Virus record (IMG/VR): IMGVR_UViG_2541047122_000017
Origin: a virus
Lineage: Duplodnaviria > Heunggongvirae > Uroviricota > Caudoviricetes
DNA: 4,431 nucleotides
Direction: 5' to 3' (one strand)
Shown: positions 1,094 through 4,431 of the stretch, piece by piece
Layout of the letters: every line of letters starts with the position of its first letter
Numbering within the stretch: position 1 is the first letter of the stretch
The notes under the pieces: generated by a model
Seen by the model: the letters and a program-made list of their open reading frames with translations, nothing else
What the model was told of the DNA's origin: nothing
The model's database searches: none
Program-made: the position numbers and the translations under genes

Positions 1094-3189
1094 GGATTAT
1101 CTTCCGCACGCTCCGTCCACAGTTTTTTCTTCCGGCGACGGCGTTTTTCTGCCCCGGCCGTCAGTTCCGGGGATACCGTTTCACCAGAACGCTCCTGCGG
1201 GAAGACGAGCCACGTTTCCCGCTGTGCCCAGTCCGGTGCGGAGGGCCAGCGGATCTTTTCGTAACCATGCAGAACGGCAAGCGCATCCGCATAAACCAGC
1301 AGGTCAAACGCTTCGTTAGCGCCCCTGCCCGGTTTTCGCCATTTTCCGTCACTGCCGCGCTCTTCATAGGTCAGCTCATCGTAAAACCACCGCCCCAGCC
1401 AGTCGGGAAAGTGGATATAGTTCGGCCCTGGTGTGTCACGCCACAGGGCATTATTTACACGATCCTTAAACGCATCCGTCTGAACCAGCCACAGCGCGAC
1501 ATCGCCACTGGCTCTGGCACGGCGGGCACTTCTGCCGGTATTATCCGGGAAGGTTCGGTTAATCAGCCTGTCACGGCGAAGTCCATCCCCCTTGAACAGA
1601 AACACCCTGTTGCCCAGTCCGTCACTCCGGCAACGACGCCAGAAACGATAGGCGTTATCTGTCACCCCGGCTTCCCCTCCCGTATCCACCGCCATGGCCA
1701 TCAGACGCATGCGCACATCCGGATCAGAAGCCAGCGGCCATGTTTTATGGAACACATCCGTCAGCAACAAATCCCAGTCCTCCGGATATGCCGCCGGATC
1801 AACCGGCAGACTTTCACCGTTGGGACTGCAGCGCAGTGAATGCCGGATGTTGTAGCGATCAACAATCCAGCGTTCCCCCTGCTCTCCGTATCCGGTGATC
1901 TGCACAACAAAACGGCGATTTTTACCGCCCTGTACGTCAACCGTTGCCTCAATAAAACGCACACCATCCGGCACAGATCGCCGGGGAAACGGCTCGGCAC
2001 GCTGTTCAAGCAGTTCACTTTTACGCTGTTCCGTGGCTGAACGGGGCAGATAGGGTCGTCCGATATCGGTGTTCACCACCGCTTTCAGGGTCTCTTCACT
2101 GCCGGTTCGCTCATACTCTTCTTCTGCCGCCAGCAGTTTAAAAATCAGTTGTTCCCAGGTCTGAAACGCCGCAGCTGGCCCCTCCATCCAAAATGACGCA
2201 ATCCGGGAGTTTCGTGGCGTTCCGGTGATACTGCCGTCCGCCGCCGCCCGTTCACCTTCACGAAGCCAGATCCCCTGGTTATTCAGTTCGCGTTTCTGCT
2301 CAGGGGCAATCAGCCCGCGACAATGCGGACACATCAGACGGGCAGCCTGACCGGCAGCCACAAAATCCGGGTTATTCCGGTATCCGGTCATGTTATCCAT
2401 CACCGGCTGAAAATATTCCCCGCAGTGCGGACACGGCCAGTACCACCGGCGGCGGTCTCCCCGGTTATACAGTGACAGGATCCCCGTTGTTGGCGGTGCC
2501 TCATGTGCGCCACCACAACGCCATTTGGTATCGGTGATATCCCGCCCCGGTGAACTCTCGACCAGGGTCATCCCCGAGGACATAAAGGTGGTGGTACGCT
2601 TTGAGGCCAGCGTGAAGGCATCCCCTTCCCCGTCCACGTTTTCAGGGAAACGGTCATAATCCGTCAGCGCCACACGACGGTAATCCGAAGAGGAAAAGAC
2701 GGTGATCGACGGCCAGCCAATCTTCAGGAAGGAGCCGTCAAGAAACATTTTATCGTGGACGTTGTTGTCATTACGGGAAGGACTGAGGCGCTTGCTGACC
2801 TCCGGACTGTGGCGAAACGTCCTGGAAAGACGCGTTCTGGAATGCTCACGCGCCTTCGTCTCAGTCATCTGCACCACCAGCATATCCGCCGGATCACAGA
2901 TGATGCCGTACACAATCCAGCCATCAATCAGCCCTTCGGTTTTCCCGGTTCGCGCAGGTCCCACAAACACCACCGCGTCATATTCACGGGCTGATAATGT
3001 ATTAATGGGGTCAATCATATAGGGCGTCAGCGATGACTCCCACGGACCGGAAGTATTGGCTCCCCGTGGAACCCGCATATAACGCCTGATGGCTTCCGCT
3101 ACTGGTAACCGGCTGGGTGGGCGAAACAGCGAGGCCACTTCGCGCCAGATATCGGATGCGCGGCTATGGCTCTCGTTCACCTGATTCAC
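1066..3189 (-). CDS. terL: Terminase large subunit, lambda gpA-like (707 aa)
   Basis: Long ORF with a canonical Walker A P-loop GPARTGKT (aa 77-84, nt 2938-2961). Two CPHC pairs (C253-x2-C256 and C287-x2-C290), the first (WPCPHCGEYF) resembling the CPHCGEE motif of lambda gpA. DTGG motif (MAVDTGGE) and a C-terminal region (EAFDLLVYADALAVL) reminiscent of lambda gpA (NEALDCFVYALAAL) from memory. N-terminus ...LFRPP... parallels lambda gpA ...LFRPEP.... Start is GTG at 3189-3187 overlapping the upstream stop (GTGA). Confidence 0.95.
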   Translation of the reverse strand: MNQVNESHSRASDIWREVASLFRPPSRLPVAEAIRRYMRVPRGANTSGPWESSLTPYMIDPINTLSAREYDAVVFVGPARTGKTEGLIDGWIVYGIICDPADMLVVQMTETKAREHSRTRLSRTFRHSPEVSKRLSPSRNDNNVHDKMFLDGSFLKIGWPSITVFSSSDYRRVALTDYDRFPENVDGEGDAFTLASKRTTTFMSSGMTLVESSPGRDITDTKWRCGGAHEAPPTTGILSLYNRGDRRRWYWPCPHCGEYFQPVMDNMTGYRNNPDFVAAGQAARLMCPHCRGLIAPEQKRELNNQGIWLREGERAAADGSITGTPRNSRIASFWMEGPAAAFQTWEQLIFKLLAAEEEYERTGSEETLKAVVNTDIGRPYLPRSATEQRKSELLEQRAEPFPRRSVPDGVRFIEATVDVQGGKNRRFVVQITGYGEQGERWIVDRYNIRHSLRCSPNGESLPVDPAAYPEDWDLLLTDVFHKTWPLASDPDVRMRLMAMAVDTGGEAGVTDNAYRFWRRCRSDGLGNRVFLFKGDGLRRDRLINRTFPDNTGRSARRARASGDVALWLVQTDAFKDRVNNALWRDTPGPNYIHFPDWLGRWFYDELTYEERGSDGKWRKPGRGANEAFDLLVYADALAVLHGYEKIRWPSAPDWAQRETWLVFPQERSGETVSPELTAGAEKRRRRKKKLWTERAEDNPWITSGGWL

Positions 3190-3662
3190 ATATCGGCCTC
3201 ATCACAACAGTCAATGACTGCCTTTTCCAGTGTGTCGCGGATCTCATCAACCACAATCTGTACTTCATTCAGTTGTGATGCGGTCCACCCCCTGTCCCTC
3301 TCCAGCCGGTCAGGCCAGGTTTCCAGTACCTGAACTATCGCTTTCACCACGACAGAAAAGGACCGCCTGACATCACTGACTGGCACAAGCTGAACAGTTT
3401 CATGCTGAAATTTAAGACGCTCGCGCTCGGACTGATACCATGCCTTACGAGCGTGAGGATCCATATCCTCATCTTCGGAAGATGGTGGTTTTTCCAGCAA
3501 CGAAGTTATCAAATCCGTCAGGAGATACAGTTTTTTCTTTTCATTACTGCCTGGTGCAAGAGGAACATCCGCCATTCTGGCGGCAACAGTCTGCCGGTGC
3601 AGACCTGAAAGGGCTGCCAGTTGATTAATATTTAACTTCATATTTTTCAGCTCGCCGTCCAT
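3186..3662 (-). CDS. terS: Terminase small subunit, lambda Nu1-like (158 aa; possibly 151 aa if the internal ATG at 3641 is used)
   Basis: N-terminal helix-turn-helix-like segment MKLNINQLAALSGLHRQTV parallels lambda Nu1 MEVNKKQLADIFGASIRTI (from memory). Sits directly upstream of, and is translationally coupled to, the terminase large subunit. Strong SD GGAGGG 6 nt upstream of the ATG at 3662. Acidic central stretch SSEDEDMD. Confidence 0.85.
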   Translation of the reverse strand: MDGELKNMKLNINQLAALSGLHRQTVAARMADVPLAPGSNEKKKLYLLTDLITSLLEKPPSSEDEDMDPHARKAWYQSERERLKFQHETVQLVPVSDVRRSFSVVVKAIVQVLETWPDRLERDRGWTASQLNEVQIVVDEIRDTLEKAVIDCCDEADM

Positions 3663-3847
3663 TTACATCCCTCCACATAAACCGCAGAACAGAAGTGACT
3701 CTGTTTTTTTGTAAAGAAATGCCGCCATATAAAGATGTCGAACAAAAAACAACCACAATCATCATCTTTTTAATACTAACAGCATTAAAAACAACAAGTT
3801 ACCATCATGATGATGATGACGATAAAATCACAAAAATGCGCCTTTTT
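3663..3847 (-). promoter_or_regulatory. Candidate cosB-like terminase-binding region (AT-rich, with repeated ATCATCAT / CATCATGATG motifs)
   Basis: About 185 bp of AT-rich non-coding DNA between the putative cosN and the terS start, the same place and roughly the same length as lambda cosB. Contains AATCATCATC (3757-3766) and the perfect 10-bp palindrome CATCATGATG (3803-3812) followed by GATGATGA. Function is inferred by position only. Confidence 0.4.
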
Positions 3848-3866
3848 CCGCGCCCGCCCGCCCCGT
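3848..3866. other. Candidate cosN (cohesive-end site); predicted 12-nt overhang about 3852-3863
   Basis: Minus strand reads ACGGGGCGGGCGGGCGCGG. This resembles the lambda cos junction ...ACG/GGGCGGCGACCT CGCGG... as I recall it, with the first six bases after the nick (GGGCGG) identical. It lies about 190 bp upstream of the terS ATG, similar to the cos end to Nu1 distance in lambda. It is the only strongly GC-rich block in an otherwise AT-rich intergenic region. Confidence 0.45.
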
Positions 3867-4117
3867 GTTCAGGCCCACCCCACCAGGAGGACCCGCAAAA
3901 ACGATAATGGTTATCATTTGCAACAAAATCCAGTTTCTTCCACCATCGCACCGGACTGGCGACTATGAGGGGACAACACCGCGCTCCGTTAACGCGGTAA
4001 ACCCCGGTGTGTATCGTTTTTGATTATCCCCGCACACTCTCGCAGAGGAGTCTCCCTGTCGGGCTGCGGTCTCTGTTAATGCAGGAATACGGTGACGATA
4101 CGGCGCATCAGCAAAAC

Positions 4118-4431
4118 TTAGTTCAGGCACTGAGTGCGGATATAGTCCTGTGCCCCTTCCAGCTGCTTCTGCATTGTCATCAACCGTTCTCTGAGGATGA
4201 AATAATCCCGTTCAGCGGTGTCTGCCAGTCGGGGGGAGGCTGCATTATCCACGCCGGAGGCGGTGGTGGCTTCACGCACTGACTGACAGACTGCTTTGAT
4301 GTGCAACCGACGACGACCAGCGGCAACATCATCACGCAGAGCATCATTTTCAGCTTTCGCATCAGCTAACTCCTTCGTGTATTTTGCATCGAGCGCAGCA
4401 ACATCACGCTGACGCATCTGCATGTCAGTAA
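4118..4431 (-). CDS. Rz: Rz i-spanin (inner-membrane spanin subunit), C-terminal ~104 codons; the 5' end lies beyond the window end
   Basis: Translation MQMRQRDVAALDAKYTKELADAKAENDALRDDVAAGRRRLHIKAVCQSVREATTASGVDNAASPRLADTAERDYF... is near-identical to the C-terminal two-thirds of lambda Rz as I recall it. The frame stays open upstream of the first in-window Met (..T-D-M-Q-M..) to the window edge. Stop TAA at 4120-4118. Confidence 0.95.
   Translation of the reverse strand, partial: TDMQMRQRDVAALDAKYTKELADAKAENDALRDDVAAGRRRLHIKAVCQSVREATTASGVDNAASPRLADTAERDYFILRERLMTMQKQLEGAQDYIRTQCLN
4180..4362 (-). CDS. Rz1: Rz1 o-spanin (outer-membrane lipoprotein spanin subunit), 60 aa, fully embedded in the +1 frame of Rz
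   Basis: MRKLKMMLCVMMLPLVVVGCTSKQSVSQCVKPPPPPAWIMQPPPDWQTPLNGIISSSENG matches lambda Rz1 almost residue for residue from memory. Signal peptide with lipobox LVVVG-C and a proline-rich mature region. Lies entirely inside Rz in another frame, the classic embedded-gene arrangement. Confidence 0.9.
   Translation of the reverse strand: MRKLKMMLCVMMLPLVVVGCTSKQSVSQCVKPPPPPAWIMQPPPDWQTPLNGIISSSENG

Follow-up and report, generated by a model that had tools for sequence, protein, structure and literature searches.

A putative lambda-type cos site with a variant cohesive-end sequence in an Sp15/VT1-Sakai-like lambdoid Stx prophage

Lambda-type cos sites are known in phages that carry Gifsy/mEp213-type terminases (PMC12315714, PMC4669245), and in 2009 the Sakai prophages Sp4 and Sp14 had their putative cos sites aligned to that of lambda (PMC2669165). 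Published rules hold that a conserved CG lies outside each nick and that 10 of 16 cosN base pairs are twofold symmetric (PMC4669245, PMC9026076). Work from the Feiss laboratory describes the right half of the overhang as the naturally variable half, a pattern that N15 and Gifsy-1 share (PMC4669245). Lambda terminase sets the bottom-strand nick by its distance from R3, and tolerates changes of 1-2 bp in this spacing (PMC4669245, PMC9026076); R3 itself occupies bp 50-65 in lambda and bp 48-60 in N15 (PMC9026076).

The stretch of DNA analysed here, called the window, is 4,431 nt long, and its closest record is the Stx1 prophage VT1-Sakai (Sp15 of O157:H7 Sakai). No cos is annotated in the VT1-Sakai record, and the same is true at this site of the other records inspected. 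The searchable literature contained no description of an Sp15/VT1-Sakai cos, although the variant may stand in the survey of Vahanian et al. 2017 (Virology 509:140), which lay outside the search. Full-text searches with the end sequences returned only G-quadruplex (aptamer) and unrelated papers, and searches for cosN in Shiga-toxin phages and for DUF1441 as a terminase gave nothing relevant. A literature search for experimental ends found none for this phage or for its close relatives (terS identity of 74% or more). The genome of Ayreon had been opened arbitrarily, and the Ahp2 paper contains no end data; the cos of the Stx phage Lys8385Vzw is of an unrelated 3' type. The comparisons below nevertheless indicate that a motif between Rz and the terminase genes is very probably the cosN of a complete lambda-type cos (cosQ-cosN-cosB), in a lambdoid Stx prophage of the Sp15/VT1-Sakai kind.

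Gene context and architecture of the candidate cos

On the minus strand the gene order is Rz/Rz1, the putative cos, an intact terS, terL, a small W-like ORF and the start of a portal gene, with the cos lying in a non-coding gap of 455 bp that separates Rz/Rz1 from terS (Table 1). The GTG start of terL (3189) overlaps the terS stop (3186) by 4 nt, the usual layout for translational coupling of terminase subunits. Many related records label the DUF1441 terS as terminase small subunit. Window positions 3600-4130 are 99.4% identical to VT1-Sakai, and the cos segment proper (3660-3900) is 100% identical to VT1-Sakai/Sp15; a 321-bp segment (3640-3960) is 100% identical across many complete O157:H7 genomes. 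Three mechanically called ORFs run across the cos region (3805..3951 on the minus strand, 3807..3968 and 3695..3907 on the plus strand), and in the mEp460 record (JQ182728 44129-44377) an annotated hypothetical protein crosses both cosQ and cosN. These ORFs, the mEp460 protein included, are probably not genes, because conserved non-coding cos elements underlie them.

Table 1. Features of the window around the putative cos. Bracketed positions are counted from the first overhang base (window 3863).
Feature	Window coordinates	Strand	Sequence and remarks
Rz	4423..4118	minus	Rz1 embedded within
cosQ heptamer	3888..3894	minus	GGGTCCT; 7/7 identical to lambda
Putative cosN	3848..3866	minus	ACG / GGGCGGGCGGGC(G) / (C)GCGG; left half matches lambda and all relatives
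Presumed top-strand nick	between 3864 and 3863		
Possible bottom-strand nick	opposite 3853/3852, 3852/3851 or 3851/3850		overhang of 11, 12 or 13 nt, respectively
Near-palindromic block	3832..3847	minus	AAAAAGGCGCATTTTT; between cosN and R3, in the place of the lambda cosN-R3 spacer
R3-like repeat	3802..3822 (42-62)	minus	TCGTCATCATCATCATGATGG; core ATCATCATC at 47-55
I1-like IHF site	3786..3801 (63-78)	minus	TAACTTGTTGTTTTTA; homology to lambda I1
R2-like repeat, inverted	3753..3769 (95-111)	minus	AAAGATGATGATTGTGG; pairs with R3 (inverted repeats I1, I4) and with R1 (I3)
R1-like repeat, direct	3729..3743 (121-135)	minus	GTTCGACATCTTTAT; inverted repeat I3 TATAAAGATG/CATCTTTTTA with R2
terS, 158 aa	3186..3662	minus	Pfam DUF1441, PF07278, E=3.8e-48
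terL, 707 aa	1066..3189	minus	gpA family (ATPase and endonuclease domains); PF05876 E=1.8e-81 and PF20454 E=6.2e-84, both full length

Read from 3866 to 3848, the minus strand gives ACGGGGCGGGCGGGCGCGG, precisely the reading offered by the initial annotation, which had likened it to a lambda junction given as ACG / GGGCGGCGACCT / CGCGG; that junction agrees with NC_001416. The likeness resides in the left half, where CACG/GGGCGG is identical, and the proposed variant 3' half is equally apparent: overhang bases 1-6 are those of lambda, and every difference falls within bp 7-12. The distance to terS, put at about 190 bp, is a fair figure, since 186 bp separate the 3' edge of the motif (3848) from the terS ATG. 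Counted from the first overhang G (3863), the ATG (3662) lies 201 nt downstream, at position 202 from the end, compared with position 191 for lambda Nu1.

Junctions were aligned from phage records with the DUF1441 terS family, together with lambda. In full, the minus-strand junction of the window reads GGGTCCT-24 bp-…ACACG / GGGCGGGCGGGCGCGGAAAAAGGCGCATTTTT. That of lambda is GGGTCCT-23 bp-…TTACG / GGGCGGCGACCT / CGCGGGTTTTCGC; that of cdtI and Tritos, whose records begin at GGGCGG, is GGGTCCT-22 bp-…CCACG / GGGCGGGAGCGT / CGCGGAAAAAGGCTAGTTTTT; and LLS and mEp213 have …CCACG / GGGCGGCGCGCT / CGCGGGAAACGGCTAGTTTTT, with bases 1-12 of LLS annotated as a 5' cohesive site. The corresponding segments are CG / GGGCGGGAGCGG / CGCGG in mEp460 and CG / GGGCGGCAGCGG / CGCGGGATTTGGCGCATTTTT in Fels-1, and the yong2 record begins with CGCGGGAAACGG, right after its 12 nt, which stand at the other end of the record. 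CACG/GGGCGG is identical in the window, lambda, LLS, cdtI, Tritos, mEp213, mEp460 and Fels-1, and it is precisely the homologous G of GGGCGG that opens the cdtI, Tritos and LLS records. The LLS/mEp213 end was itself inferred (PMC12315714), and the choice of start in the records of cdtI, Tritos and yong2 is undocumented.

The heptamer cosQ, which in lambda is the packaging-termination element, also occurs as GGGTCCT in LLS, cdtI, Tritos, yong2, mEp460 and mEp213, and its distance to the left nick is 24 bp in the window, 23 in lambda and 22 in cdtI, LLS and Tritos. In many Stx1a phage records, the match to the window runs from Rz and breaks off at 3888, where cosQ ends. Beyond this point one of them, LC645428, has a genuine lambda cos (GGGCGGCGACCT), complete with lambda R sites, and then a Nu1 gene. 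The window site can thus be regarded as the allelic counterpart of lambda cos, because a homologous Stx1a phage has lambda cos and Nu1 in its place, and by this alignment the mosaic joint between window-type and lambda-cos Stx phages lies at cosQ.

Just upstream of cosQ on the minus strand is a palindrome, GCAAATGATAACCATTATCG (window 3902-3921), that agrees with the Fur-box consensus GATAATGATAATCATTATC at 16 of 19 positions, a match found in 0/200 shuffles. Lambda (ATGATAATCATTATCA), mEp213 and most related loci keep it at the equivalent place; Tritos, LLS and a few others lack it. We know of no described role for a Fur-box-like palindrome adjoining cos.

Could the motif be a chance GC-rich stretch, or a regulatory or G-quadruplex element, with the true packaging signal elsewhere or packaging by a headful (pac) mechanism? 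The minus strand of 3848-3885 has five G-runs in about 37 nt (GGTGGGGTGGGCCTGAACACGGGGCGGGCGGGCGCGG), and (GGGC)n repeats are known to form G-quadruplexes. Against chance, only 0.15 occurrences per window are expected of the core pattern CGGGGCGGN7CGG, with 1 mismatch allowed, and the composite of cosQ, spacer and cosN, GGGTCCT-N20-26-CGGGGCGG, arose in 0/200 shuffles; related records begin exactly at the site; a TerL of the gpA family makes 5' cohesive ends; no terminator was detected, and the promoter-like signal did not exceed background. Above all, the region is colinear with lambda cos over the palindrome, cosQ, the left half of cosN and I1, a homology that effectively rules out both a chance stretch and a non-packaging element; the reading as a whole, with its pac alternative, is very improbable. 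The cosN call of the initial annotation is borne out by the agreement of gpA-family TerL, terS, cosQ, the R3-IHF-R2-R1 layout and the record starts. In the alignment to lambdoid cos sites that it proposed as a check, conservation extends over cosQ, the flank on the left, overhang bases 1-6 and the block on the right, and in close relatives cos lies at the homologous position rather than elsewhere.

Putative cosB and its pairing with TerS

To the right of cosN, the window has the pattern R3, IHF site, inverted R2 and R1 at lambda-like distances, the repeats being putative TerS-binding sites. The block that precedes R3 conforms to (A/G)AA..GGC..TTTTT, which is conserved in cdtI, Tritos, LLS, yong2, mEp460, Fels-1, Gifsy-2 and Cr-LKS3, and in the aligned IMG/VR loci it is nearly invariant, with single-base variants only. 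The position of the window R3 agrees with those of lambda and N15, and R3 and R2 form a 100% inverted repeat (ATCATCATC/GATGATGAT). The R1 motif TTCGACATCTT sits inverted at the R2 position in LLS, yong2 and mEp213. Between R3 and R2, the IHF-like site aligns with lambda I1 (TAACTTAATGTTTTTA) and contains the sole intergenic match (3789-3801) to WATCAANNNNTTR with 1 mismatch. Its assignment rests on position and on homology to lambda I1, because the number of IHF consensus matches over the whole window is not above chance.

By analogy with lambda, DUF1441 TerS dimers would use their N-terminal domain to bind R3, R2 and R1, aided by IHF bending the DNA at I1, and bound TerS would anchor the gpA-type TerL over cosN. 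TerL would then nick the top strand after CACG (3864/3863) and, some 12 bp rightward, the bottom strand, producing 5'-protruding, G-rich cohesive ends that start GGGCGGG. Packaging would proceed rightward through terS and terL until the following cos, where cosQ would help to end it. In this model, protein binding, nick positions and overhang length are all inferred; what the comparisons show is the sequence anatomy of the site, its homology and equivalent placing to known cos sites, and the joint variation of the R repeats and the TerS N-terminus. The mechanism is textbook lambda biology, and the length polymorphism of cosN described below is the only mildly novel element of the site.

A comparison of 76 related IMG/VR loci revealed two groups that have cosQ and cosN in common and differ in the sequence downstream. 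In group A, the type of the window, the repeats are of the CATCATC kind; those of group B are of the CAC kind, with GCACCATCACCACC in the R3 place, TAGTGTCGAAT in the R2 place and GTTCATCACTGG, and group B has an IHF site of perfect consensus, TAAGTTGTTGATA, in the same place as in group A. The TerS proteins of the two groups are nearly identical in their C-terminal half and differ over the N-terminal ~65 aa, and across the related loci the R repeats co-vary with the TerS N-terminus. The pattern is that of lambda versus 21, with a putative swappable DNA-recognition module of TerS paired with its own cosB, while the constant C-terminal part presumably interacts with TerL. The mosaic joint of the two packaging-specificity groups falls inside terS (loci L007-L086 versus window 3186-3830), and both groups can co-occur in one E. 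coli genome (IMG genome 2534681835, L014/L015 versus L067).

A direct likeness of this TerS to the helix-turn-helix of Nu1 is only suggestive. An hhalign comparison was colinear and placed LNINQLAALSGLHRQTV opposite the Nu1 helix-turn-helix, at an alignment probability of only 11.5%; a PDB sequence search with TerS gave chance matches only, and a single-sequence AlphaFold model (pLDDT 54.7) was too poor for a fold search.

Overhang length and the state of cosN

The initial annotation presumed a 12-nt overhang, GGGCGGGCGGGC, with termini at about 3852/3863, which if correct would define the physical genome ends. On sequence evidence the site itself stands; the exact coordinates and the 12-nt length are one reading among several, with overhangs of 11, 12 or 13 nt all possible. 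The 12-nt figure is insecure because close relatives differ in the length of the segment between the conserved flanks, CACG and GCGG(A/G)A, which measures 8, 11, 12 or 13 nt. The commonest form is the 11-nt GGGCGGGCGGC, in ~42 of the 76 loci (40 of 70 distinct contexts), and GGGCGGACGGC, of equal length, occurs in several. At 12 nt there is the window type, present in 11 IMG/VR loci with both cosB types, as well as GGGCGGGTCGGC, GGGCGGAGGGGC and GGGCGGGAGGGC in several loci, while GGGCGGCAGCGGC and GGGCGGGAGGGGC have 13 nt, the lambda-like spacing. The 8-nt form, GGGCGGGC, is found in L022 alone (IMGVR_UViG_2541047125_000017), whose cosN, GGGCGGGCGCGG, has one GGGC unit deleted; it is probably a slippage product, and this cos is possibly dead. 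Another shortened end is seen in the mEp460_4F5 record (L003, LR595868), which begins CCACGGGGCGGGAGCGCGGAAAAAGG and is three bases shorter in cosN than mEp460 (L194, JQ182728; GGGCGGGAGCGGCGCGG), either through an assembly artefact at the genome end or through a real deletion.

Which of these lengths would the terminase produce in the window? Read as CG/GGGCGGGCGGCG/CG, the common 11-base variant fits the published rules and is symmetric at 10/16 positions, as lambda is. In the window the left CG is present, and the right CG is kept with 11 nt (/CGCGG) or 13 nt (GCG/CGG), not with 12. The window is one base shorter between the flanks than lambda, cdtI, LLS, mEp460 and Fels-1, so that in the 12-nt reading the right nick is followed by GC in place of the conserved CG. 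Twofold symmetry of the window is 6/16 with 12 nt, 4/15 with 11 nt and 10/17 with 13 nt, set against 10/16 for lambda; neither these scores nor the R3 spacing discriminate between the 11-, 12- and 13-nt models. In the distant phage Cr-LKS3, the right-hand cut falls directly before the conserved CGCGGAAG…GGC…TTTTT block, and by analogy this favours the 11-nt reading. The window R3 is ~1 bp further from CGCGG than the R3 of Fels-1, which, with the nick set by distance from R3 as in lambda, would favour the 12-nt reading. No contigs ending inside cosN were found in two viral-contig scans (~100 stretches each) or in one metagenome scan (~30).

The honest statement of the predicted termini is 3863 and 3852±1. 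Within it, a 12-nt overhang, GGGCGGGCGGGC, is our tentative first choice; an 11-nt overhang, GGGCGGGCGGG, is a doubtful though reasonable candidate; 13 nt is unlikely; and a 12-nt overhang moved one base to the right is more unlikely still, as is an overhang of some other kind. Variation in cosN length may come in part from slippage in the (GGGC)n run. A broader proposal, which we consider speculative and rather unlikely as a whole, is that near-identical gpA-type terminases in the O157 prophage pool make ends of 10-13 nt, so that co-resident prophages sharing cosQ, the left part of cosN and even cosB would have incompatible sticky ends, with the window phage making ends of 11 or 13 nt and not 12.

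The same polymorphism raises the question of whether the window has a weakened or dead homologue of cosN, its extra G, giving (GGGC)x3, being a slippage product fixed in the prophage state. The commonest variant (GGGCGGGCGGC followed by GCGG) is one base shorter and reaches 10/16 symmetry, while the window in the 12-nt reading has 6/16 and loses the right CG; and L022 lacks a whole GGGC unit, from which it follows that slippage does occur at cosN. Sp15 DNA is found in a DNase-resistant, particle-associated form, both spontaneously and after mitomycin C (Asadulghani et al. 2009, PMC2669165), and Sp15 has head-gene defects that other prophages complement, with packaging at a low level (PMC2669165). 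Low-level packaging in a prophage that is otherwise defective would suit a weakened site, whereas the presence of Sp15 DNA in particles argues against a dead one and, together with the full-length TerS and TerL, speaks for a site in use. Nor does a weakened site sit well with the occurrence of the window-type variant in 11 IMG/VR loci with both cosB types, with the 100% identity of the 321-bp region in many complete O157:H7 genomes, with the second, independent set of 12-base variants (GGGCGGGTCGGC, GGGCGGAGGGGC, GGGCGGGAGGGC), or with the tolerance of lambda for right-half cosN changes and for spacing changes of 1-2 bp (PMC4669245). A weakened or dead cosN is, on this balance, improbable, and so is its corollary, that nicking is inefficient or inaccurate and packaging depends on tolerance of the enzyme or on helper prophages.

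Under the preferred reading of a standard cosN, the site would place the physical ends of the Sp15/VT1-Sakai-type Stx1 prophage to within 1-2 bases, from sequence comparison, which is of use for annotation, for the orientation of phage genomes and for interpreting packaging and transduction in the O157 prophage pool. If indels in cosN do alter overhang length, these loci would constitute a natural experiment on nick placement by gpA-type terminases, setting local sequence against distance from cosB.

Comparison with known cos systems

In E. coli PICIs, cosQ and cosN are almost the same as in lambda-like helpers (PMC9026076), and a PICI-type satellite that hijacks a helper terminase could in principle own such a site; some related contigs also have a cos without terS or terL downstream. 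PICI cos sites, however, lack phage-type R repeats and are followed by rpp (PMC9026076), whereas the window cos has R repeats and stands after Rz/Rz1 and directly before intact terS, terL, the W-like gene and the portal gene. A PICI cos is thus ruled out for the window by its terS/terL flank, which replaces rpp, and by its R repeats, leaving a satellite origin extremely improbable.

Two complete cos sites, tandemly arranged ~2.54 kb apart and facing the same way, occur in some of the related contigs: L157 (1100-4200), L244, L106, L121 and L122, to which a comparison of two scans adds L096, L103, L107, L115, L117, L135, L146 and L158. The first cos has group-B cosB repeats and the second group-A repeats. 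In L157 the two flank a gene for a 629-aa ClpP-protease/major-capsid fusion, with an SSB gene upstream; the second cos is followed, in the place of terS, by a 93-aa ORF without a Pfam match and then by an Ag43/AIDA autotransporter gene, and neither terS nor terL comes after it. Such contigs could represent a satellite-like element, or else what is left of a rearranged prophage.

The Cylindrospermopsis phage Cr-LKS3 resembles the window in its gpA-type TerL, its DUF1441-like terS, a cosQ-like GGGTCCC, a left nick at CG/GGGC and, directly to the right of the overhang, the conserved CGCGGAAGTCGGCAGTTTTT block. It differs in being distant (~32% terS identity) and in its 9-nt end, a 5' overhang reported as GGGCTCGCG (PMC9303873), which shows that the wider family is not bound to a 12-nt overhang.

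Closer to the window are mEp213/LLS, mEp460, cdtI/Tritos and Fels-1, which have in common with it the terS family (34-59% identity), the left part of cosN and the A-rich/GGC/TTTTT block. The cosQ of mEp213/LLS, mEp460 and cdtI/Tritos is that of the window, while Fels-1 has the variant GGTACTCC; LLS, yong2, mEp213 and Fels-1 have an R3 of the CATCATCAT type, as the window does. The difference lies in cosN, where the two CG flanks enclose 12 nt in mEp213/LLS, mEp460, cdtI/Tritos and Fels-1 (among them GGGCGGCGCGCT, GGGCGGGAGCGT and GGGCGGCAGCGG) and 11 or 13 in the window.

With lambda itself, the window shares cosQ, CACG/GGGCGG, the order R3-I1-inverted R2-R1, a TerL of the gpA family and a terS that starts ~200 nt from the end, and the block around the IHF site, TAACTT..TGTTTTTA, is homologous. 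It departs from lambda at overhang positions 7-12, all of which differ, and is one base shorter ahead of the GCGG/A-rich block. In sequence the R repeats of the two are unrelated, being of the CGTTTCC type in lambda and the CATCATC type in the window, and the window TerS is a DUF1441 protein without a significant sequence match to Nu1.
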